From positions 35,510 to 99,509 of IMG/VR virus record IMGVR_UViG_3300028591_000139: DNA of 64,000 bases, one strand, 5' to 3'. The first letter of the stretch is position 1. The number at the start of each line of letters is the position of its first letter. Source of the stretch: a virus (taxonomy: Duplodnaviria > Caudoviricetes). Below are positions 15,537 to 64,000 of the stretch, piece after piece. The position numbers and the translations under genes were made by a program. The notes beneath the pieces were generated by a model. It was not told where the DNA came from, did not search any database, and saw only the letters and a list, made by a program, of their open reading frames with translations.

Positions 15537-15636
15537 AAAATAGAGCAATCATAATAGTGGTTGCTCTTTCTTTATGCCACGTTATTACGTGCGTACCAAG
15601 CATAGTACAGTTCATCAGTTCAAAATAGGACGTTAC

Positions 15637-15658
15637 TGCCAACAGATATATCGTTACT
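15637..15658 (+). repeat. Solo copy of the 22-bp TIR of the TnpB elements
   Basis: tgccaacagatatatcgttact matches the TIR at 47146-47167 at 20/22 positions. Confidence 0.7.
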
Positions 15659-35007: not shown

Positions 35008-35172
35008 GTTTGTTTTGTTTTATTAAGTAATGTTTAGTTATTTTCATTTTTGTCATTTCATTAATATGTCATATATGTCATTAAGAGTTGCCCATCCATT
35101 TGTTAGCCTGTCTTCCATTGAATAATCAACCTTCACTGGGGTTATTGACGTATGAGATTCTTTTATTGGCAC

Positions 35173-37140
35173 TCAGGTGCCAACAGGTATATTATTACCT
35201 ATGTTCATATATTCCATTTCACAGTTATAGAATTTAAATGATTTCATATATCCTATAAATGTTCCAGCGAAGTTTTCTTCCAATGGATATGTTCTTGTTG
35301 GGTCAAGCATATAATTTGGTAAGACTGTTTCTGCCAATCCTTGTGTTCCACCGCCCAACGATATGTTAAATGGCACTCCTTCTTGTTTTTCATATAAATC
35401 ATTAAGTTTATGGAAATTAAATTTGGGCAATGTTTTTGTTACGTATACCAATTTTCCATCAACATAGAAATATAGTTTTATTCCGGTGAATATTGATTTT
35501 ATTTTAACGTGCACAACGTGCCATTCACAATCTTTAATAACATTTGGGAATGAATATCCTTCAATGACTGAATATTTATGTTCATTTTTTGCCTCGCAAT
35601 CGAATATTAAATATCTATATCCAATTTCTCCGTTATCTGTTATTCTTAATGCAAATGCGTTATTATATATATCTTTATATAAATCAGTATATTCTGAATT
35701 TGCTTTATCTCTTAATTTATCAATATCATTTACGGTATATCCTGTTTTTGTTCTATTCATTAAGATAAATAAATTGCCTTTAAATTTATCTTTCTTGCCA
35801 TAGAGCATCATTTTAGTGCCTTCTTCCCAATTATTTATTGTGAAACCTGTTTTTGTTCTATCAAATAATATAAATTTATTATCGGTATAGAAATAATAAT
35901 CATTTGCTGATTTCAGCATAAAATCATTATCTGTTTTATATTCAAAATCGCTTATATTCAATTCTGCCTCAATATAGTCTGAATCATAGTCCAACCCATC
36001 AAAGCCGTCTATATATCCATCTCCAAATAATTCACAACCGGATGATGGTTCATCTTTATCTTCCGCCCTGACATATTTTTGTTTTACGCAGCCGCACGCT
36101 GTAAAGAAAGAAACTTGCTTTGTTTTTGTCTTTTTTTCTTCCAAATCGCAGCACCAACTATCCATTGTAGTATGTGTCAATGTTTCATCTATTGTTTTTG
36201 GTGTAATATCAAAGTCCAAATAATCATCCAATATGTTTTCTCCATCGCAGCTTACTGTTCCTGAGAAAAGTTCTTCTTCACTTGTTCTATAGTATGACTC
36301 ATCATAATAATTAAAGTTCGTATAGTCATCAATATCTAAAAATTCTTCAATATAATCAGGATTTGGATTATAGAAATTACCTATTATATAATCTTTTTTA
36401 TCTATGTGGGCATCTTCAATATAATCATCGTATGATAAGGTTGAACATGATTCTTTATCTTCTTCATCATATAGATAAATCCATTTATTTTCGGCCCTTG
36501 TTCCCATATAGAAGAATATTCCCTTATTATTTGGGTATTTATCATTTAATGTTTTTTCAGATTCCTTTTCAAAATCACATTTATTTAAGGTAAATTCCAA
36601 TTCCCACGTATCTAAATCGTCCATTTTATAAGGGAGAACAGAATATTTATTACATTCTGTCATAAAAAAGCCTTGATAAAATCCGCCATTGAATTTTATC
36701 ATATCATTTTCTATTTTTAATGGATATTCATATAATAAAGTAGTTCCGCTTACAGCATGGAGCTTTAATCTATTATCTCCTTCTTCTATATCATATTTTG
36801 AATTGGTATAATAATTAACAAAATCCTTATTTGATATTCTGTCCTTTCTATATTGTATTAAACCATTATCTATACCGGTATATCCAATATTATTAAGCGT
36901 ATACGTGGTTGTTATGGCGCTTTCCCATTGATACTTGTTTGAACTATAAATCCATGTATCTCCACTAAAGCAGTCTTTATCTGAAACATCTATATATGAT
37001 ACCAAACAATCATCATACATAAAGCTACTATTGAAATTATAGCTTCCATAAGCATCATTGTTTATGAAAAAATCCCAATAGTCATCTTTATTTACCCTTA
37101 ATTTGAAAATATGATAGTTATTTTCTTTTAAATTAGCCAC
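35173..37140 (-). CDS. Putative virion protein with a ConA/LamG-like region; last codons supplied by a TIR
   Basis: WHVVHV..LYFYVDGKLV..FIGYMKSFKFY; the terminal GNNIPVGT is encoded almost entirely by the TIR. Confidence 0.6.
   Translation of the reverse strand: MANLKENNYHIFKLRVNKDDYWDFFINNDAYGSYNFNSSFMYDDCLVSYIDVSDKDCFSGDTWIYSSNKYQWESAITTTYTLNNIGYTGIDNGLIQYRKDRISNKDFVNYYTNSKYDIEEGDNRLKLHAVSGTTLLYEYPLKIENDMIKFNGGFYQGFFMTECNKYSVLPYKMDDLDTWELEFTLNKCDFEKESEKTLNDKYPNNKGIFFYMGTRAENKWIYLYDEEDKESCSTLSYDDYIEDAHIDKKDYIIGNFYNPNPDYIEEFLDIDDYTNFNYYDESYYRTSEEELFSGTVSCDGENILDDYLDFDITPKTIDETLTHTTMDSWCCDLEEKKTKTKQVSFFTACGCVKQKYVRAEDKDEPSSGCELFGDGYIDGFDGLDYDSDYIEAELNISDFEYKTDNDFMLKSANDYYFYTDNKFILFDRTKTGFTINNWEEGTKMMLYGKKDKFKGNLFILMNRTKTGYTVNDIDKLRDKANSEYTDLYKDIYNNAFALRITDNGEIGYRYLIFDCEAKNEHKYSVIEGYSFPNVIKDCEWHVVHVKIKSIFTGIKLYFYVDGKLVYVTKTLPKFNFHKLNDLYEKQEGVPFNISLGGGTQGLAETVLPNYMLDPTRTYPLEENFAGTFIGYMKSFKFYNCEMEYMNIGNNIPVGT
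35178..35199 (+). repeat. Solo 22-bp TIR overlapping the 3' end of the 35173..37140 gene
   Basis: tgccaacaggtatattattacc, identical to 41172-41193. Confidence 0.85.
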
Positions 37141-39099: not shown

Positions 39100-39407
39100 T
39101 ATTTACTTTTTAATTTAAAAACCTATATTATATAAGTGTGGCAAGCAATGCTGCACTTATATATTTTTAGGCAATAATATAGCAGTTGGCACAAATGATT
39201 TATAAAATGCAGTCAGAAATGGCTGCATTTATTGTTGAGGTCTCCCCCATCTAAATGAAATATAGTTTAGAATATCTCTTGTGATAAGTTGATAGACTTG
39301 CCTTGCTGAATTCTCATTGCCAAGCGAGAAAGTTACTATTCTTCCAACATTAACAAGCCATATATGTCTTCTTACGTCATACTCTAAACTATTACCATTT
39401 TCACGTA

Positions 39408-39550
39408 CCGTATATAAAATTCTATGAAAATCTATGAATCTCATACATTTTATTTCTTGTTTCAACCTATCACTACTCTTTAGGTGGTAAACCACGTTCA
39501 TCCATAGTTGGATAGTCCACAAGCGTAAATTCGGTAGTACGGCTACCTAT
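39408..39550 (-). ncRNA. Orphan omega-RNA-like sequence of a second TnpB family (possibly IS607-type)
   Basis: Homologous to the 3' region of the tnpB remnant at 63199-63345 (gtactaccgaatttacgcttgtgga..ggttgaa.caagaa); no adjacent tnpB. Confidence 0.65.
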
Positions 39551-39935
39551 ATTTATTTACTTTATTTATCTTTGTACTCATAATATAAATATCACTAAAG
39601 TTGAAAAAGTTTCGTATTTTATCAAATTATTTTATATTCTTTAATAGATTTTTGATGAACAGTTATTAACCCTTATATCTGTGTTTGGATTGTTTTGGAA
39701 TCTTCCAATAGTACCGTTGTTTAGTCTTACTATATTCATAACATCATTATAGACAAATCTTGGAAATAAGAAATTAATTAGATTAACAGAAAGTGATTTA
39801 CATCAAATTGTGAAAGAATCTGTTAATAGAATATTAAACAATATAACGAAGAAAAAGTAAAATTTTTCTTCGTTTTTTGCCACTTTTTAAAACTACGTGA
39901 TATTTATATATAGAAAAAATTAAAAAGTATATATT

Positions 39936-41096
39936 ATGAAACGAGCATACAAATACAAGATTAAACCAACATACAAGCAGCAACATCAGTTGTTGCAAGC
40001 TTTTGGCTGTGCTCGTTTCATATATAACTGGGGGCTTGATAAGAAAACAAAGGCTTGGACTAACGAACGCAAAACCATAACATATTTCCAACTTGCAAAG
40101 GAATTAACTACATTAAAGAACACCGAAGAACATAATTGGCTGAAAGACGTACCAAGTGAGTGCTTACAGCAGTCATTACGTAATCTTGATAATGCATATA
40201 CGCAGTTCTTCAAAGCGAAGAAAGGCTTTCCAAAATTCAAGTCAAAGAGAAAGTCAAAAGATGTTTCAAAATACACACAAGCCATTTATTTTGACTTTGA
40301 TGGTTGGAAGGTTAGAATACCAAAGTGCGGATGGGTTAAGCTTTGCGAGAATAAGTCATTTGATTTATCAACGTCCAAAATTGGAACATTAACAGTTAGT
40401 AGGGATAAGTGCGGAGAATATTGGTGTACCATTGTGGTTGAGGATAACAAACCACAGAAATCGAAAGCCAAGATTTCTGAAGATACAAGTGTTGGAATCG
40501 ACTTGGGCATCAAGGACTACGCAATTCTATCTGACGGAACTAAATACTCAAATCCAAAGTATTACGAGCGTAGCCAACAAAGGCTGAAACTATTACAACA
40601 AAGGTTTGCAAAGACAATGAAGGATTCAAAGAGACACGAGGTAATGAGAGTTAAAGTTGCGAGACAGTATCGTAAGATAACCAATATGCGTAATGACTTC
40701 CTTCATAAATTAACAACAGACCTTGTTAATAGATTTGATACAATATGCCTTGAGAACCTTAACGTTGAAGGTATGATGAAGAATCACAACCTTGCAAAAA
40801 GCATTCAATCAGTTTCTTGGGGAGAATTTGTTAGGCAAATTAAGTACAAAAGTGAATGGTTTGGAAAGAACGTGATATTCATTGGTAGGTTTGAACCAAG
40901 TTCAAAGACTTGCAGCAATTGTGGATATGTCAATCAAGACTTGAAGTTGTCAGACCGCGAATGGGTATGTCCTATTTGTGGTGAACACCATGACAGGGAC
41001 GTTAATGCTGCAATTAATATTAAGAGATTTGCCTTAAATCCTCAAGCCTTGGTAGGCTTTGAGGAAAAGGTTTTAGAAATAACGGACCGTAGGTAG
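39936..41096 (+). CDS. tnpB: RNA-guided endonuclease TnpB
   Basis: N-terminal HTH, RuvC GIDLG / CLENL / DRDVNAA, zinc finger CSNC..CPIC. Confidence 0.95.
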   Translation: MKRAYKYKIKPTYKQQHQLLQAFGCARFIYNWGLDKKTKAWTNERKTITYFQLAKELTTLKNTEEHNWLKDVPSECLQQSLRNLDNAYTQFFKAKKGFPKFKSKRKSKDVSKYTQAIYFDFDGWKVRIPKCGWVKLCENKSFDLSTSKIGTLTVSRDKCGEYWCTIVVEDNKPQKSKAKISEDTSVGIDLGIKDYAILSDGTKYSNPKYYERSQQRLKLLQQRFAKTMKDSKRHEVMRVKVARQYRKITNMRNDFLHKLTTDLVNRFDTICLENLNVEGMMKNHNLAKSIQSVSWGEFVRQIKYKSEWFGKNVIFIGRFEPSSKTCSNCGYVNQDLKLSDREWVCPICGEHHDRDVNAAINIKRFALNPQALVGFEEKVLEITDRR

Positions 41097-41171
41097 GCGG
41101 TTTGATGGGCGGTGAGGGTAAAGTGGTTGCACTCCCTATGAAACGTCAAGATTGTAAATCCTTAAGGCTTA
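41082..41171 (+). ncRNA. omega-RNA 3' scaffold plus 22-nt guide (41150-41171)
   Basis: gaggg..ccctatgaaacgtcaa end is shared with elements 2 and 3 with covarying stems; 5' end undefined. Confidence 0.7.
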
Positions 41172-41209
41172 TGCCAACAGGTATATTATTACCTTTTTTT
41201 TTAACAGTT

Positions 41210-42343
41210 ATGGCAAAAAAAATAAATCTTGAACAATTTATAAAAAAAGCAAAAGAAGTTCATGGCAACAAATATGATTATTCAAAAACTAAATATATCA
41301 ATAACAGGACTAAAATTTGCATAATATGTCCAAAACACGGTGAGTTTTGGCAAGCGCCAGGAATACACTTGGAAGGGCATGGCTGTAAAAAATGCGCAAT
41401 AGAATATAAATCGAACTTAAGAAAATACTCTGCTGAAGAATTTATAAAAAAAGCACGTGAAGTCCACGGTGATAAATATGATTACTCAAAAGTTAATTAC
41501 ATTAATAGCCAAACAAAAGTTTGCATAATTTGTCCGGAGCATGGAGAGTTTTGGCAGAAGCCAAATAATCACTTACAAGGTCAAAGATGCGGAGGCTGTC
41601 ATGGAACGCATAAATTAGGAACAGAATCTTTTATTGAAGAAGCTAAAAAAATTCATGGAAATAAATATGACTACTCAAAAGTTGAATATGTCAATAGTAA
41701 AACTAACGTTTGTATAATATGCCCGGAGCATGGCGAATTTTGGCAAAATCCATATAAACACTTAAATGGAAGTATGTGCCAAAAATGTACTAAAAATCAT
41801 AGCTATACGGCAGAAGAATGGATAGAAGAAGCCAAGCGAGTGCATAACAATAAATATGATTACTCAAAAGTTAATTATATTAATGGCCAAACAAAAGTTT
41901 GCATAATATGTCCGGAACATGGAGAGTTTTGGCAAATACCAAAATATCATTTGCAAGGTTGCGGCTGTCCAAAATGTAATCAAAGTCATCTTGAAGCGGA
42001 AATAGAAAATCTTTTAAAAGAAAATTCTATAGAATATCTTGAATATTATTCGCCAAAATGGTTAGGAAGACAGCATTTAGATTTTTATTTACCTGATTAT
42101 AATATAGCAATTGAATGCCAAGGAGAGCAGCACTTTGAACCCGTTAGTTTTAATTCCGATAAATCTGAAAGCACAAAGCAAAAAAATTTTGACAAAATAC
42201 AAGAAAGAGATAAACGCAAAGCAAAATTATGTGAAGAGAATGGTTTAAAAATGTTATATTTCACACATTATGAAAAAATTAATGAATTAGGAAATATTTA
42301 TAAAAACGGAGATAAACTTTTAAACGAATTAAAATGTCATTAA
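41210..42343 (+). CDS. Homing endonuclease (CPxHG repeats plus Vsr/DUF559-like nuclease)
   Basis: Four repeats; HLDFYLP..AIECQGEQHF; ATG at 41210 lies outside the TIR. Confidence 0.85.
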   Translation: MAKKINLEQFIKKAKEVHGNKYDYSKTKYINNRTKICIICPKHGEFWQAPGIHLEGHGCKKCAIEYKSNLRKYSAEEFIKKAREVHGDKYDYSKVNYINSQTKVCIICPEHGEFWQKPNNHLQGQRCGGCHGTHKLGTESFIEEAKKIHGNKYDYSKVEYVNSKTNVCIICPEHGEFWQNPYKHLNGSMCQKCTKNHSYTAEEWIEEAKRVHNNKYDYSKVNYINGQTKVCIICPEHGEFWQIPKYHLQGCGCPKCNQSHLEAEIENLLKENSIEYLEYYSPKWLGRQHLDFYLPDYNIAIECQGEQHFEPVSFNSDKSESTKQKNFDKIQERDKRKAKLCEENGLKMLYFTHYEKINELGNIYKNGDKLLNELKCH

Positions 42344-45934: not shown

Positions 45935-47144
45935 AAAAATTAAAATCTTAGTTATCCCATCTGATAGAAGCGGATGTGGAAAGTTTCGCTCAGTTAGCCC
46001 TCATACTTATATACAAGAGCACTATCCCGATGAATTCGATGTGGACATTGTATATAACCTACCAAAAGAAAACCTGGATACATATTTAAAACAATATGAT
46101 ATTATACACATCCACAAACAATTGGATAAAAATTGTGAAATAATGAAAATGATTAATTTCCTTGAGATACCGGTAATCATTGATGTTGATGATAATTTTT
46201 ATTTGGGAAATGACCATCCAATGTCATTAACCGCCAAAAAGGAAAAATGGCATGAGCCAATAATTAATCATTTGAAATTGGCAAATTATGTGACAACAAC
46301 CACGTCAATATTTGCCGAAAAACTTAAAAAATATAATAAAAATGTATATGTATTTCCAAATGCCATAGACCCAACGGAAAAGCAATATGAATATAAAAAG
46401 AATCCAAGCAATGGAAAATTAAGAGTTGGTATAATTTGTGGCTCATCTCATTTGCATGACATAGAGCTATTGGGTGATTTGGTAACAAGGACGGCAGATA
46501 ATGTACAGATTGTGCTTTGTGGCTTTGATACAAATGGCACTATAACAACATATAATGCACAAACCGGAGAAAAAACGCAAAGGCCAATTAAACCGGAAGA
46601 AAGCGTGTGGTTCACATATGAAAAAATATTAACCAATAACTTTAAAGGACTCAGCAATGAGCATAAAGAATTCCTTCTTAAATTCATGAAAGGAGTTGAT
46701 GACCCATTCATTAATGAAAAATATAGAAGAATGTGGACAAGAAATATAACAGAATATGCAACGCACTATCAGAATGTTGACGTGCTGCTATGCCCCTTAA
46801 AGGAAAATGATTTTGATTTGGTAAAATCTGAGCTTAAATTTGTGGAAGCAGGCTTTTCTCATACCGCCGTTATTGCTCAGAATTTTGGCCCATATACAAT
46901 TGGTTCCGTTCCAATGATTAAATATGGTGGAAAAATAAATCCAAATGGAAACTGTTTATTGGTTGACCCAAGAAAGAATCACAAGGATTGGGTTAAATAT
47001 ATAAATAAACTTGCAGCAGACCCGGAAATGCTAAAAGCGCTGCAAGAAAATATGTATAATCACGTTAAGGATAGATATTCATTAGATACGGTATGCAGAC
47101 AAAGAGTGGAATTTTATAAGCAAATCGTCAATAATAATAAATAA
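45924..47144 (+). CDS. Glycosyltransferase (GT-B, GT4-like)
   Basis: GCGKFR..P, IIDVDD, VFPNAID, DVLLCPL..KSELKFVEAG. Confidence 0.8.
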   Translation: MENKKIKILVIPSDRSGCGKFRSVSPHTYIQEHYPDEFDVDIVYNLPKENLDTYLKQYDIIHIHKQLDKNCEIMKMINFLEIPVIIDVDDNFYLGNDHPMSLTAKKEKWHEPIINHLKLANYVTTTTSIFAEKLKKYNKNVYVFPNAIDPTEKQYEYKKNPSNGKLRVGIICGSSHLHDIELLGDLVTRTADNVQIVLCGFDTNGTITTYNAQTGEKTQRPIKPEESVWFTYEKILTNNFKGLSNEHKEFLLKFMKGVDDPFINEKYRRMWTRNITEYATHYQNVDVLLCPLKENDFDLVKSELKFVEAGFSHTAVIAQNFGPYTIGSVPMIKYGGKINPNGNCLLVDPRKNHKDWVKYINKLAADPEMLKALQENMYNHVKDRYSLDTVCRQRVEFYKQIVNNNK

Positions 47145-47168
47145 AGGTAACGATATACCTGTTGGCAC

Positions 47169-47385
47169 AAAAACCTCCTTGCTGTAACAAGGAGGGGAAA
47201 CCACAAAGGGGTTTTGGCGCATGTGTCTTACCGAGCTACATGCAAAACTCTGCCTATCAAGTCCTTGACTTGCAGACACCATCCCTTTGACAAGATGGGG
47301 CAACGTTTAAGTACCACCATAGTTGCTATTGTACTTACTTCACTATGTAATTTGGCGTTCTGTACATATGGCGGCTAAACGCTAC
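47169..47385 (-). ncRNA. Candidate structured small RNA transcribed divergently from tnpB
   Basis: Promoter TTTG-N19-TAATTTTG (47418-47388, minus strand), several hairpins, terminator cctccttg/caaggagg plus U-tract. Confidence 0.55.
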
Positions 47386-47510
47386 CGCAAAATTACAAAA
47401 TCTCGCCGATATAGCAAAAACTTTTCGGAGAGATTTAATAAAAAAGTTTGAGTAAAAACAGTATTTTTTGCTTTAACTTGATATTTATTAGTAGATAAAC
47501 TGATAATACT

Positions 47511-48638
47511 ATGATTAAAGCATACAAATACAAAATAAAACCAAACAAACGCCAAGAGGAACTTCTATCAAAGTTCTTTGGGTGTTGCAGGTATATATAC
47601 AATTGGGGGCTTAATCGTAAAACATCAGCTTACAAAGAAAATGAAACGCATATTAACTATGTACAGCTTGCAAAAGAGCTTACCACCTTAAAGCAAACAG
47701 AAGATTGCAATTGGCTTAAAGAAGCACCTAATGAATCATTGCAGCAATCGCTAAGATGCCTTGACAATGCTTTCACTGCATTCTTCCGCAAGAAAGCAAA
47801 ATATCCAAGATTCAAGTCAAAGAAACATACAAAGGATTCGGCAAAGTTCATTAACTCCGTTCACTTTGATTTTGAAAATTGGAAAGTGAAACTTCCAAAA
47901 CTTGGATGGATTAAATTATGTGAGAATAGGACATTTGGCCAAAGCATTTGTAAGCAAGGTACTTGTACTGTCAGTAGAGACCATTGTGGAACTTATTGGT
48001 GCTCAATAACGGTAGATGACATGCAGCCAAAACCAGCGAAAACCAAGTTGGTTAAGGATAATGCGGTTGGAATCGACCTTGGCATTAAGGATTACGCAAT
48101 ACTCTCAGATGGAACTAAATACTCAAACCCAAAACACCTTGAAAAGACGCAAAGAAAACTTGCGTGGTTACAAAGGGATTTTGCAAGAACAAAGAAAGAT
48201 TCAAAGAATCACGAAAAGATGAGGATAAAGGTTGCGAAGTGCTATAGAAGCATCACCAACCAAAGGAATGACTTTTTGCATAAGCTATCCACTCATCTTG
48301 TAAGGAACTACGATGTGATTTGTCTTGAAGATTTGAATGTTAAGGGAATGGAGCAGAACCATCACCTTGCAAGAGCAATCCAAGGTGCAAGTTGGGGTGA
48401 GTTTGTTAGACAGTTGGAGTATAAGAGTGAATGGTACGGTAAGAATATACTGTTTATTGGTAGGTTTGAGCCAAGTAGCAAGTTATGCCACAAGTGCGGA
48501 TATATCAACCAAGAATTGCAGTTAAAAGACCGTGAATGGGTTTGTCCTGTTTGTGGTGAGCTCTTGGATAGGGATGTTAATGCTGCAATTAACATTAGAG
48601 AGATAGCCTTCGACAAGCAGAACCTTGTTGGAGTATAG
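47511..48638 (+). CDS. tnpB: RNA-guided endonuclease TnpB
   Basis: GIDLG / CLEDL / DRDVNAA, zinc finger CHKC..CPVC. Confidence 0.95.
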   Translation: MIKAYKYKIKPNKRQEELLSKFFGCCRYIYNWGLNRKTSAYKENETHINYVQLAKELTTLKQTEDCNWLKEAPNESLQQSLRCLDNAFTAFFRKKAKYPRFKSKKHTKDSAKFINSVHFDFENWKVKLPKLGWIKLCENRTFGQSICKQGTCTVSRDHCGTYWCSITVDDMQPKPAKTKLVKDNAVGIDLGIKDYAILSDGTKYSNPKHLEKTQRKLAWLQRDFARTKKDSKNHEKMRIKVAKCYRSITNQRNDFLHKLSTHLVRNYDVICLEDLNVKGMEQNHHLARAIQGASWGEFVRQLEYKSEWYGKNILFIGRFEPSSKLCHKCGYINQELQLKDREWVCPVCGELLDRDVNAAINIREIAFDKQNLVGV

Positions 48639-48655
48639 AAAAAATAACTAAATTA

Positions 48656-48744
48656 AAGCCCATCGGGAAGTGGGATTAAGGCTGTGGAGGGCAAGAACAT
48701 TAGTTTCCCTATGAATCAGCAAGATAGTAAATCCTTAAAAGTCC
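48656..48744 (+). ncRNA. omega-RNA 3' scaffold plus putative guide (48723-48744)
   Basis: Aligns with the element 3 scaffold with compensatory changes. Confidence 0.7.
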
Positions 48745-48799
48745 ATAATTAATTTTTTTAAAAAAATAAGAGCGTAGTTATTTTTTAACCGCACTCTTA

Positions 48800-48976
48800 T
48801 TATTTTTTTAATTCTTCAATTAACTTATCAGCATATTGTACAGCTATATCAGATATTTGTTTTTTGAAAACAAATTGAAACAAAAACGCCATTATTGAAC
48901 TGCTTAATATTGCGTTCATTATGTTAACTGCCGCATCAATTCTAACTTGCTGCCAATCTATTGATTTATCTTCCAT
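48800..48976 (-). CDS. Small hypothetical protein (58 aa; below the ORF-track cutoff)
   Basis: Manual translation MEDKSIDWQQVRIDAAV..AVQYADKLIEELKK. Confidence 0.65.
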   Translation of the reverse strand: MEDKSIDWQQVRIDAAVNIMNAILSSSIMAFLFQFVFKKQISDIAVQYADKLIEELKK

Positions 48977-49012
48977 AATTGCTATATTTTCTATATAAAT
49001 ATTTTAAACAAC

Positions 49013-50383
49013 ATGAAATATGACAAAATAGTTGAAAGAGCGCGTAAAATTCATGGCGATAAATATACTTATCCGCCATTTGATGAAATTCCTGTTGGCA
49101 AAAAAATGAAAATAATATGCCCAATTCACGGTGAATTTGAACAAACAGCATTTGCTCATATGAAAGGCCAAGGTTGCCCAAAATGCGTTGGAGAAAAAAG
49201 AGGATATACTACCGAAGATTTCATCAAAGACGCAAAATTAAAATTTGGTGATAAATTTGATTATTCAAAAACAGAATATACCGGAAGAAGAAATAAAGTC
49301 CTTATCATGTGCAAGGATTTTATAACAGATGAAAACCCAAATGGAGAATTTTGGCAGTTACCATTTAATCATTTGAAATCAAAAGATGGTTTTCCGTTTA
49401 TGGGTGAAAGAGGTAGAAAATACGGGAAAATATCTGATGAAGAACAAATATTAAAAAAAACAAAAAAATTCATTGAAAAAGCAAAACAAATCCATGGCGA
49501 TAAGTACGATTATTCAAAAGCCGTATATAATGGATGTTTTCAAAAAATATGCATTGTTTGTCCAAAGCATGGCGAATTTTGGCAACTTCCTGGTAATCAT
49601 ATAAAAGGCTGCAACTGCCCAACATGTTCAAATAAAACGCCAATAACAAAGGATGAATTTATTAAAAAAGCAAATGAAATTCATAATTTTAAATTTGATT
49701 ATTCAAAAGTTGTTATTGGAAAATCAAATGATAAGGTATGTATAATATGCCCGGAACACGGTGAGTTTTGGCAAACAACATCAAATCATTTAAGAGGAAG
49801 AGGATGCATTAAATGCTCAAGAAACAAAAAACTAACAACAGAAGAATTCATAGAAAAATCAAAATCAATTCACGGAGATAAATATGACTACTCAAAAGTA
49901 GAATATGTAAATAATGCTACCAACGTAATCATAACATGTAAAAAACATGGTGATTTTAAACAACTTCCTTCGGTACATTTATATGGTGGCGGATGCCCAA
50001 TATGCAACGAAAGCCATATGGAAAATGAACTAAGTCTGTTATTCAATGACAATAATATAAGATATGAAAGACAAAAAACATTTGAAACAATCAAATATAA
50101 AAAGGAACTTCCATTTGACTTTTATTTGCCGGATTATAATGTTGTCATAGAATGCCAAGGAGAGCAACACTTTAAAAAACATCACTTTTTTAATGATGAA
50201 AATAGATTTGAAAAGGATAAAATAAAATATGAAGGCTGTTTAAATAACAATATTAAAATATTGTACTACACAAATTATAACAGCTATAAAAAATATTTTA
50301 ATGAAATCTATAATGAAAACAATACATTTAACAATAAAATTAAATTATTAAATGAAATCATAAAACAAAAAAATACCGAGTAA
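49013..50383 (+). CDS. Homing endonuclease (CPxHG repeats plus Vsr/DUF559-like nuclease)
   Basis: Five repeats; PFDFYLP..VIECQGEQHF. Confidence 0.85.
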   Translation: MKYDKIVERARKIHGDKYTYPPFDEIPVGKKMKIICPIHGEFEQTAFAHMKGQGCPKCVGEKRGYTTEDFIKDAKLKFGDKFDYSKTEYTGRRNKVLIMCKDFITDENPNGEFWQLPFNHLKSKDGFPFMGERGRKYGKISDEEQILKKTKKFIEKAKQIHGDKYDYSKAVYNGCFQKICIVCPKHGEFWQLPGNHIKGCNCPTCSNKTPITKDEFIKKANEIHNFKFDYSKVVIGKSNDKVCIICPEHGEFWQTTSNHLRGRGCIKCSRNKKLTTEEFIEKSKSIHGDKYDYSKVEYVNNATNVIITCKKHGDFKQLPSVHLYGGGCPICNESHMENELSLLFNDNNIRYERQKTFETIKYKKELPFDFYLPDYNVVIECQGEQHFKKHHFFNDENRFEKDKIKYEGCLNNNIKILYYTNYNSYKKYFNEIYNENNTFNNKIKLLNEIIKQKNTE

Positions 50384-61444: not shown

Positions 61445-61490
61445 ACCTATAATAACAATATTTTTTAAGGGAACTATATACTTGTTGGCA

Positions 61491-61580
61491 CTAAACCAAT
61501 ACAATATATAACTTACTGTTTCATAGGGAAACTAATGTTCTTGCCCTCCACAGTCTTAATCTCGCTTCCCGACGAGCATT
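61491..61580 (-). ncRNA. omega-RNA 3' scaffold plus 22-nt guide (61512-61491)
   Basis: ccctatgaaacagtaa, then gttatatattgtattggtttag, then the TIR. Confidence 0.7.
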
Positions 61581-61595
61581 ATTTTCATTATTTTT

Positions 61596-62723
61596 TTATA
61601 CCCCAACAAGATTCTGCTTGTCAAAGGCAATCTCCTTGATGTTTATTGCAGCGTTAACATCCCTATCAAGATGCTCACCACAAACAGGACAAATCCACTC
61701 ACGGTCTGACAACTGTAACTCTTGGTTGATGTAACCGCACTTGTGGCATAACTTGCTGCTTGGCTCAAATCTGCCAATGAATAATACGTTCTTCCCATAC
61801 CAGTCAGACTTGTATTCAAGTTGTCTGACAAACTCACCCCAAGATGCACCTTGGATTGCCCTTGCAAGGTGATGGTTCTGTTCCATACCCTTTACATTCA
61901 AATCCTCAAGACAAATCACATCGTAATTCCTTACAAGATGGGTTGACAACTTGTGCAAAAAGTCATTACGTTGATTGCTAATGCTTCTATAGCACTTTGC
62001 AACCTTAATCCTCATCTTCTCATGGTTTTTGGAATCTTTCTTAGTCCTCGCAAAATCCCTTTGTAACCAAGCGAGTTTCCTTTGTGCTTGTTCAAGATAC
62101 TTTGGGTTGGTGAACTTTGTACCATCTGAGAGTATTGCATAGTCCTTGATGCCAAGGTCGATTCCAACTGCATTATCCTTAACCAACTTGGCTTTCGTTG
62201 GTTTTGGCTGCAAGTCATCAACCGTTATAACGCACCAATATGTTCCGCAATGGTCTCTACTGACAGTACAAGTGCCTTGTTTACAAGTGCTTTGGTCAAA
62301 GGTTTTATTTTTACATAGTTTAATCCAACCAAGTTTTGGCAGTTTCACTTGCCAATTCTCAAAGTCAAAATGAACTGAATTTATAAATTTTGATGAATCT
62401 TTTGTATGCTTCTTTGACTTAAATCTTGGATACTTACCGTTTTTCCTAAAGAAGTTTGTAAATGCGTTATCAAGGCATCTAAGTGATTGTTGTAACGATT
62501 CATTTGGTGCTTCGTTGAGCCAATTACACTCTTCAGTTTTCTTTAGGGTGGTAAGTTCCCTTGCAAGTTCGACATAACTAACCTTTGTGCCATTTTCCTT
62601 ATATGCTGATGTTCTTTTATTTAGCCCCCAATTATAGATATACCTGCAACATCCGAAGAACTTTTGTAATAGTTCCTCTTGCTGTTGGTTTGGTTTTATT
62701 TTGTATTTATAGGCTTTCAGCAT
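61596..62723 (-). CDS. tnpB: RNA-guided endonuclease TnpB
   Basis: Close paralogue of 47511..48638; D-E-D triad intact; start MLKAYKY. Confidence 0.95.
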   Translation of the reverse strand: MLKAYKYKIKPNQQQEELLQKFFGCCRYIYNWGLNKRTSAYKENGTKVSYVELARELTTLKKTEECNWLNEAPNESLQQSLRCLDNAFTNFFRKNGKYPRFKSKKHTKDSSKFINSVHFDFENWQVKLPKLGWIKLCKNKTFDQSTCKQGTCTVSRDHCGTYWCVITVDDLQPKPTKAKLVKDNAVGIDLGIKDYAILSDGTKFTNPKYLEQAQRKLAWLQRDFARTKKDSKNHEKMRIKVAKCYRSISNQRNDFLHKLSTHLVRNYDVICLEDLNVKGMEQNHHLARAIQGASWGEFVRQLEYKSDWYGKNVLFIGRFEPSSKLCHKCGYINQELQLSDREWICPVCGEHLDRDVNAAINIKEIAFDKQNLVGV

Positions 62724-62849
62724 AATATTCATCAGTTTTCTACTAATAAATATCACGTTAAAGCAGAAAATACCGTTTTTACTCAAACTTTTTTATTAAA
62801 TCTCACTGAAAAGTTTTGTTGTTTCAGTGAGATTTCGTAATTTTGCAAA

Positions 62850-63002
62850 CTGAACTACGCTTGTGTTTTTTTAGTATACGTTTAAAGCGGAAATCACACG
62901 AATTGTGCGGTCAGATGTTAAGTATAGAAATAGGCACAACACAGTTCAAAAAAACATTTTAGTTTCCTCCTTGCCCTTCCAAGTGTGAGGAGGTTTTTGT
63001 TT
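62850..63002 (+). ncRNA. Candidate structured small RNA transcribed divergently from tnpB
   Basis: Promoter TTTG (62815-62818), 19 nt, TAATTTTG (62838-62845); terminator cctcct/aggagg plus T-tract. Confidence 0.55.
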
Positions 63003-63198
63003 ATTGCCAACAAGTATATAGTTCCCTTTTTTAATTATTAAATACGCTTTAAGCAAATATACAAAAAAAACATTAAAAATATAAATTCTTACGGTTAAAT
63101 ATTGTTAAATTGCCTTCTTTTTAATCACTTTAACTCATCGTAAAATTTGAAAACGCATCCATTATGTTTAATTGCTTTATGCTCACAAACGCATCTGA

Positions 63199-63425
63199 CA
63201 GTATGTTAAAACTTGAACAAACTTGTCTGCCCATTATTAACTTCTTGCTTCAACCTACCACTGCTTTTTAGTGCCTCATTACTGAGTCTGTCATCCACAG
63301 TTGGGTAATCCACAAGCGTAAATTCGGTAGTACTGCTACCTATTATTCTTAAACCTTCATCAAGTATGTTTAACGCTGCATTGTAGTCCCTTTCAATTAC
63401 CTCACCACATTGGGGACAAACCGCT
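63199..63425 (-). pseudogene. tnpB: 3' remnant of a second-family tnpB with its omega-RNA/right end
   Basis: Manual translation VCPQCGEVIERDYNAALNILDEGLRIIG; ends ttttaacatactg. Confidence 0.8.
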
Positions 63426-63546: not shown

Positions 63547-63619
63547 TTCCCGAGGCAGGGCTCAAACCTGCAACACTCACAGCCAAATTGTGATGCTCTA
63601 TCAATTGCGCTACTCAGGA
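63547..63619 (-). tRNA. tRNA-Gln(UUG), atypical
   Basis: Cloverleaf tcctgag/ctcggga; anticodon arm tcaca-atTTGgc-tgtga; T arm gcagg-tttgagc-cctgc; D and T loops are non-canonical. Confidence 0.65.
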
Positions 63620-63836: not shown

Positions 63837-63874
63837 TGCGGATACCCGGATTTGAACCGAGACGCGTCTTTCAG
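63837..63874 (-). tRNA. 3' half of a tRNA (probably Leu) abutting a mobile-element end
   Basis: T arm ctcgg-ttcaaat-ccggg, acceptor tatccgc plus A, long variable-arm remainder; the 5' half is not in the window. Confidence 0.6.
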
Positions 63875-64000
63875 CAGTATGTTAAAACTTACACAAAGTT
63901 GAACTTCGTACTTTATTAACTTCTTGCTTCACAGAACCACTACTTTTTAGCGAACTGTTTCCAGTTGGGTCATCCACAGTTGGGTTCTCCACAAGCTTAG
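63875..64000 (-). mobile_element. Right end/omega-RNA of a second-family TnpB element, running off the window
   Basis: Homologous to 63199-63325 with the same ttttaacatactg terminus. Confidence 0.7.

Follow-up and report, generated by a model that had tools for sequence, protein, structure and literature searches.

Introduction

TnpB elements have been studied as the ancestors of Cas12 and as genome editors, and the passengers that travel with them are usually ignored. Among the described forms are TnpB elements associated with DDE transposases and bounded by inverted terminal repeats, which make up the branches DDE-1 to DDE-6 (Altae-Tran et al. 2023, PMC10691335). The elements considered here resemble these in that tnpB and its omega-RNA lie inside a cut-and-paste transposon with symmetrical ends, that solo tnpB copies share their ends with copies carrying a transposase, and that the 3' end of tnpB lies at most 250 bp from the transposon end. 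Small RNAs derived from transposons are known from IS200, which gives rise to the 5'tnpA sRNA and to the antisense RNA art200 (PMC5435999, PMC12594629, PMC4513863).

The window, by which we mean the whole stretch of DNA analysed here, makes up the final 64 kb of a virus contig of 99.5 kb and contains three tnpB genes, each within an element numbered 1 to 3. Elements 2 and 3 probably carry small RNA genes, since in both of them a promoter and a terminator bracket bodies that are unrelated to each other and apparently non-coding, one of which is clearly under selection.

The phage and its TnpB elements

The phage codes for a tail sheath, and its relatives are phage contigs of 280-413 kb from rumen metagenomes; both observations rule out a crAss-like phage. 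Bacteroidetes-type promoters stand ahead of several of its genes. All three tnpB genes of the window carry the full domain set of HTH_OrfB_IS605, OrfB_IS605 and Cas12f1-like_TNB, and a fourth, more distant copy is located elsewhere in the contig, outside the window. The HTH, OrfB_IS605 (RuvC) and zinc-finger TNB domains of TnpB, together with a conserved scaffold over and after the 3' end of the gene, mark these as putative OMEGA systems. The features of the three elements are as follows, where leftward denotes the direction from tnpB towards the left inverted repeat.

39170-41193 (+), element 1, with the left repeat at 39170-39191 and the right repeat at 41172-41193
Interior of element 1, hairpin at about 39205-39230, 700-nt cargo, tnpB at 39936-41096 (+)
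47146-48723, element 2, from left repeat to scaffold end
47146-47167 (+), left terminal inverted repeat of element 2, GGTAACGATATACCTGTTGGCA; the same 22-bp repeat occurs at elements 1 and 3 and at relatives
47169-47195 (-), predicted leftward intrinsic terminator of element 2, stem 47174-47195, U-run 47169-47173
47196-47382 (-), body of element 2, about 190 nt, orphan sequence with leftward transcription predicted
47388-47418 (-), leftward Bacteroidetes-type promoter of element 2, -33 TTTG at 47415-47418, -7 TAATTTTG at 47388-47395
47398-47436, palindrome over the promoter spacer of element 2, arms 47398-47409 and 47425-47436
47437-47510 (+), conserved block adjoining tnpB of element 2, presumed tnpB promoter and leader, present in essentially all close relatives
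47511-48638 (+), tnpB of element 2, 375 aa, assigned by domain matches
48560-48723 (+), omega-RNA scaffold of element 2, start approximate, ending ...CAGCAAG at 48723 with no right inverted repeat after it
61469-63026, element 3, from right to left inverted repeat
61469-61490 (+), right inverted repeat of element 3; target duplication at 61461-61468 and 63027-63034
61596-62723 (-), tnpB of element 3, 375 aa counted from the ATG at 62723
62798-62811 and 62822-62835, palindrome of element 3, overlapping the leftward promoter
62815-62845 (+), leftward promoter of element 3, -7 box at 62838-62845
62852-62965 (+), body of element 3, about 113 nt; the same sequence occurs at seven further insertion sites
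62966-62998 (+), intrinsic terminator of element 3, 9-bp outer stem with two G.U pairs, then a U-run
63005-63026 (-), left terminal inverted repeat of element 3, assigned by repeat match

The left repeat of element 2 begins 2 nt past the stop codon of a glycosyltransferase gene. At its other end (48724-50383) the scaffold is followed by a bidirectional terminator and then by an HNH homing endonuclease gene (49013-50383); as there is no right repeat and a homing endonuclease gene comes next, this region is a cluster of selfish elements. The window also contains three copies of an orphan omega-RNA scaffold that belongs to a different TnpB family, at 63150-63420 (-), 63860-64000 (-) and, within element 1, 39400-39545 (-). 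The copy at 63150-63420 retains a remnant of the TnpB C-terminus (...CPQCGEVIERDYNAALNILDEG...LKSSGRLKQEV), and a tRNA gene (63547-63619, -, 48 bits) lies between two of these scaffolds.

The carrier is an IS1595-family transposon

The comparison covers 145 loci, most of them relatives drawn from IMG/VR, from JGI and ENA metagenomes and from Logan assemblies. Elements 1 and 3, like many relatives, are bounded on either side by the 22-bp inverted repeat GG[N]AA[Y]NATATANNNGTTG[R]C, and 8-bp direct target duplications flank ten elements, element 3 among them (TTAAAAAA); in element 1 the duplication matches at 6 of 8 positions, and element 2 is without a right repeat. No transposase gene is present in the elements of the window. 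Full transposases are encoded by two relatives, L042 (862-1851, -, 329 aa) and L054 (801-1787, -, 328 aa), directly upstream of tnpB and divergent from it; those of L054 and L042 match PF12762 (DDE_Tnp_IS1595) with E values of 2e-42 and 4e-44, respectively, and PF12760 (Zn_ribbon_IS1595) as well. The N-terminal half of the gene remains in L051 and L057, the last 20-45 codons alone in six more loci (L001, L040, L044, L089, L105 and L045), and the neighbour of P0057, a TnpB 87% identical to that of element 2, is a Zn_ribbon_IS1595 fragment in the same place. Taken together, the transposases and remnants in relatives, the 22-bp repeats and the 8-bp duplications identify the elements of the window as non-autonomous IS1595-family cut-and-paste transposons carrying tnpB. 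An IS200/IS605-type element inserted in a palindromic phage site, with the inverted repeat as target DNA, is ruled out by the 8-bp duplications, by the IS1595 transposase of the relatives and by the absence of the repeat behind the glycosyltransferase gene in L027 and L028.

Solo inverted repeats of the IS1595 type, without tnpB, occur at about 35170-35191 (-) and 15629-15650 (-) and, outside the window, at contig position 988 (-), and a relative record (G003) has several too. Six nucleotides beyond the solo repeat at 35191 are the first 6 nt of an inverted copy, and this repeat may be a deletion remnant. The spacer of about 20 nt between scaffold end and right repeat is conserved across sites (61491-61511 in element 3, 3210-3228 in L037). 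It matches the right repeat imperfectly and in inverted orientation, and the presumed guide is thus similar to the terminal repeat of its own element; a different spacer, ATnGTAAATCCTTAA, is common to elements 1 and 2.

A shared frame around unrelated bodies

When element 2 is aligned to the reverse complement of element 3, about 84-86% of positions agree over a stretch that begins at 47387 and takes in tnpB and the omega-RNA scaffold, the latter being conserved as far as ...CAGnAAG. At the other side the left inverted repeat is conserved between the two as GG[T/G]AAC[G/T]ATATAC[C/T]TGTTGGCA, and the CAAAAACCTCCT...AGGAGG (CCTCCT...AGGAGG) hairpin beside it is kept. The bodies, 47196-47382 and 62852-62965, cannot be aligned with each other; since the alignment collapses between terminator and promoter, the two are unrelated, as the first-pass annotation had claimed. 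A covariance model of the element-3 RNA matches all eight known copies of that body and the remnant in L141 and misses the element-2 body, which rules out common ancestry of the two.

The divergent TTTG-N19 promoter that had been proposed for both elements is found as an exact match to TTTG-N19-TAATTTTG in each, at 47388-47418 (-) and 62815-62845 (+). In the whole window 8 matches of this kind occur where 3.1 would be expected, and several outside the two elements precede phage genes. Among the copies read, 9 of 10 retain TAnnTTTG; the -7 box of L091 has a 1-nt deletion, and L137 is without the -33 TTTG. The leftward terminators were likewise recovered, in position and strand, by an independent scan, which finds a single terminator-like site per 2-kb region (46900-48900 for element 2), on the leftward strand. 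The called terminators, 47195-47174 (-) and 62976-62993 (+), are each followed by TTTTTG; that of element 2 is a 9-bp stem in the minimum-energy fold, and the stem of element 3 includes G.U pairs that are possible on the leftward strand only. Both elements therefore show a host-type promoter and an intrinsic terminator on one strand, 100-250 nt apart. Within the element-3 terminator loop region, 62972-62986 is an exact 15-nt match to 41365-41379 (-), inside the ORF 41102-42343, which is probably a chance match (blastn-short E 0.012).

The palindrome over the promoter is retained in both lineages. Its arms had been described as having changed together, which holds for one compensatory pair (C-G to T-A); at a second position both arms differ, but element 2 has a G.A mismatch there. 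Similarly, the minus-strand terminator attributed to element 1 corresponds to a conserved hairpin (about 39205-39230) that adjoins the left repeat and recurs in relatives, although the simple terminator scan does not call it. Elements with all kinds of cargo have a hairpin beside the left repeat, and so does L038, which has no cargo.

The slot is a former transposase and passenger compartment

In close relatives the left repeat may lie as little as about 103 nt or as much as 950 nt and more from the start codon of tnpB, and the final 75-85 nt ahead of tnpB are common to all of them. The slot is empty in four relatives (L003, L060, L038 and L138); elsewhere it holds a GIY-YIG homing endonuclease (L002), ORFs carrying a LTESDLHRIVKESV motif, a 63-aa membrane protein (L132, L139) or a 77-aa lipoprotein (L145), and in element 1 its minus strand carries the orphan omega-RNA scaffold that belongs to another TnpB family (about 39400-39545). 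A family of passenger ORFs, with an N-terminal (K)LIRLTESDLHRIVKESV motif and no Pfam or PHROG match, lies between left repeat and transposase or tnpB in L001, L105, L044, L042 and L054, and a short remnant of it is found in element 1 at 39765-39860.

From the -7 box to the tnpB ATG the distance is 122-128 nt in elements 2 and 3 and also in L042 (TATCTTTG) and L051 (TAAATTTG), and on the strength of this spacing, equal to that of transposase-bearing relatives, the leftward promoter is read as the former transposase promoter, an assignment based on position and motif in sequence that cannot be aligned. In L042 and L054 the DNA compared stops short of the left inverted repeat and of the terminator end of the transposase gene. 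With a transposase in the same slot of two relatives and the same -7 spacing, the "expression slot" is thus the compartment in which an IS1595-type transposon formerly held its transposase and passengers. It is not a device dedicated to RNA expression, and its promoter is where the transposase promoter is in L042 and L051.

Across the elements surveyed, the promoter and terminator pair was found at ten insertion sites only, comprising two body types and one near-empty deletion form, and the slot of most relatives holds protein-coding genes, transposase remnants or nothing. Cargo does turn over fast in the wider slot, but the term "exchangeable cassette" overstates what the ten sites show, namely two types of body and a single deletion form. 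In the same way, the first-pass picture of a conserved slot loaded with different non-coding RNAs agrees with a promoter and terminator pair around two unrelated, apparently non-coding bodies, with purifying selection on the element-3 body, and with the orphan scaffold on the leftward strand of the element 1 cargo, but it does not extend to the majority of relatives. In the deletion form, L141 (three samples), the promoter, about 16 nt of body and the terminator are kept, with about 20 nt of other sequence where the middle of the body would be. Because this form and the cargo-less elements have intact repeats, the latter also with target duplications, the body is not needed for transposition and is dispensable for the element.

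The element-3 body is conserved as non-coding sequence

The element-3 body and its flanks occur at eight insertion sites (element 3, L037, L091, L128/129, L130, L131, L135/136 and L137), with the following mean pairwise identities.

Body, 93.2%
Promoter with palindrome, 91.5%
tnpB-proximal block, 93.3%
Left inverted repeat, 87%
Omega-RNA scaffold, 83%
tnpB codon positions 1, 2 and 3, 94%, 96% and 72.3%

Third-position identity is low even within the first 150 nt of tnpB, and recent recombination is therefore not the cause of body conservation. Copies of the body differ by indels of 1-2 nt in homopolymer runs, and the body contains no ORF that begins with ATG. The identity of 93% against 72%, the homopolymer indels and the missing ORF show that the body is non-coding sequence under purifying selection, and most likely it is an RNA gene of about 150 nt. 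In its consensus fold a long imperfect hairpin precedes the terminator, with six invariant G.U pairs whose pairing is possible on the leftward strand only. The leftward strand folds at -35.8 kcal/mol (z -1.87) and the other strand at -26.0 kcal/mol (z -0.3). Covariation amounts to one compensatory pair and eight wobble-compatible pair positions, a level reached in 127 of 500 shuffles in an alignment with little variation.

Conservation by itself is strand-blind, and the bodies might instead be cis-acting DNA or a leader or regulatory region of tnpB: binding sites, a long structured 5' leader transcribed with tnpB, or an insulator that blocks read-in from the upstream phage gene, with the leftward promoter as a relic. 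This would accommodate the equal conservation (91-93%) of the promoter and palindrome and of the tnpB-proximal block, the palindrome variants among copies that are G.U-compatible on the tnpB-sense strand, and the position of element 2, which begins 2 nt behind a phage gene without a terminator of its own. We nevertheless consider it unlikely, as both bodies fold about 10 kcal/mol better in the leftward direction, the U-run of the terminator exists in that direction only, L141, L038 and L138 have the same tnpB-proximal block without the body, and the bodies are unrelated in spite of the same tnpB and proximal block.

The element-2 body is a singleton with a strong predicted fold

The element-2 body has a GC content of 45.5% against 33.4% for the window, and its leftward strand folds at -77.2 kcal/mol (z -4.05), the other strand at -67.4 kcal/mol (z -2.20), so that the leftward strand is favoured by about 10 kcal/mol in the folds of both bodies. 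The description of the bodies as rich in hairpins is accordingly strong for element 2 and weak for element 3 (z -1.87). No homologue of the element-2 body was found by blastn against INPHARED, by blastn and tblastx against the 145 related loci, in five whole relative phage records, or by exact-word scans of IMG/VR; it is a single copy in all data searched, and among 5.8 billion proteins there is no TnpB more than 88% identical to that of element 2.

It had also been claimed that the bodies lack ORFs longer than about 15 codons from an ATG. This is correct for element 3, but the transcribed strand of element 2 has ATG ORFs of 30 codons (47320-47228) and 45 codons, the longer of which crosses the terminator and the inverted repeat. 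The 30-codon ORF lies wholly within the predicted transcript, and the slots of this clade do hold small protein genes (41, 63 and 77 aa), so that a micro-protein expressed from the former transposase promoter could be imagined. Such a product is highly improbable: the ORF is without a homologue and sits inside strongly paired regions of the predicted fold, and the small protein genes of relatives are mostly on the tnpB strand, without this promoter and terminator pair.

A different possibility is that the bodies are functionless, decayed leftovers of transposase or passenger genes, and that promoter and terminator are relics not yet eroded. Many relatives do have recognisable transposase fragments or eroded ORFs in the slot, and L041 retains only transposase codons 2-4 after its -7 box; in the singleton element-2 body a 10-codon ORF begins 21 nt past the -7 box, a distance similar to the 25 nt that separate this box from the transposase ATG in L042. 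On the other hand, comparison of both bodies with the L042 and L054 transposases (blastx, blastn) gives noise only, by which a transposase remnant was rejected, and neither body resembles any slot cargo (blastx, tblastx, blastn). A body that stays 93% identical over eight sites, with neutral sites at 72%, is also unlike decaying DNA, and decay therefore applies mainly to element 2. Overall we regard it as distinctly unlikely.

RNA identity and possible targets

Neither body matches an Rfam 15 family at gathering or permissive thresholds, the best scores being 16-20 bits with E above 1, and the Rfam and Infernal search proposed at the outset thus gives no assignment at gathering score. There is likewise no match above noise to HEARO or to CRISPR repeats, and no similarity to the omega-RNA scaffolds of this genome. 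A second guide-RNA scaffold, whether an orphan omega-RNA or TranC-like, is ruled out by this lack of scaffold similarity and by the terminator directly after the body. Complementarity to the 99.5-kb phage genome (blastn-short) does not go beyond chance for either RNA, and duplex energies with the element's own tnpB and omega-RNA transcript are no better than those of shuffles, which argues against an antisense target. The suggested role as antitoxin or anti-defence decoy finds no backing in these results: Rfam gives no match, covariation is within chance, and complementarity to the element's own transcripts and the phage genome is missing. An IS200-type transposase-leader or antisense sRNA was also rejected, as only the promoter position is shared and the RNA would have the same sense as the transposase mRNA.

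A proposed passenger RNA on a surviving transposase promoter

With moderate confidence we propose that elements 2 and 3 express passenger small RNAs from a short leftward unit on the surviving transposase promoter. In their lineage the transposase ORF would have been lost and the promoter (-33 TTTG, -7 TAnnTTTG, with dyad-symmetric overlap) left behind; with the leftward terminator that abuts the inverted repeat, this promoter would form a short transcription unit that stops just inside the left repeat. The passenger retained by both elements is tnpB with its omega-RNA, and the palindrome over the promoter spacer may be an operator or a hairpin inherited from transposase control. The predicted RNA of element 3 would be about 150 nt long and its counterpart in element 2 about 215 nt. 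The element-3 RNA may act in trans as a passenger small RNA, and the different RNA of element 2 would have come about through a swap of the body between conserved flanks.

A broader reading, possible though doubtful, is that the expression signals of a lost transposase have been turned into a plug-in site for structured small RNAs, by which regulatory or counter-defence RNAs spread among giant rumen phages. Its examples would be the element-3 RNA, the unrelated element-2 RNA and the orphan guide-RNA scaffold of element 1.

The proposed passenger-RNA unit offers a candidate small-RNA gene with clear boundaries, which giant rumen phages conserve at eight insertion sites, as well as an example of transposase expression signals that outlive the transposase gene and of how very fast cargo can be replaced within a single slot of a DDE-type TnpB transposon. 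If the RNAs do act in trans, insertion sequences would be vehicles that carry small RNAs between phages; if they do not, what remains is a clean annotation of a locus that is neither a toxin-antitoxin locus nor a guide array.

Comparison with known systems

The IS200 small RNAs are similar to those predicted here in that a small structured RNA arises from the transposase promoter region, with use in trans possible, and IS200 too has a terminator hairpin at its left end. They differ in that the IS200 RNA is either a processed leader of the intact tnpA mRNA or antisense to that mRNA, whereas elements 2 and 3 have no transposase ORF and their bodies are without similarity to a transposase leader. 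TnpB omega-RNAs, orphan scaffolds and the two-scaffold intermediates between transposon and CRISPR systems are likewise non-coding RNA genes on TnpB elements of large phages; in contrast to these, the bodies of elements 2 and 3 resemble neither the scaffold of their own family nor the orphan scaffold, and the predicted RNA ends in a terminator at the inverted repeat, with no position for a guide. Insertion-sequence passenger genes and MITE-like derivatives show the same fast turnover between repeat and core gene, with unrelated cargo in close relatives, but the two lineages described here hold a non-coding unit bracketed by promoter and terminator rather than a protein gene. Among the DDE-associated TnpB elements, the main text of the earlier survey (PMC10691335) names IS630 for DDE-6 and does not mention IS1595, and no short non-coding transcription unit in place of a transposase is described there. 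DDE-type TnpB transposons are thus already known, and what is new here is one of them with a non-coding passenger unit in the transposase slot.
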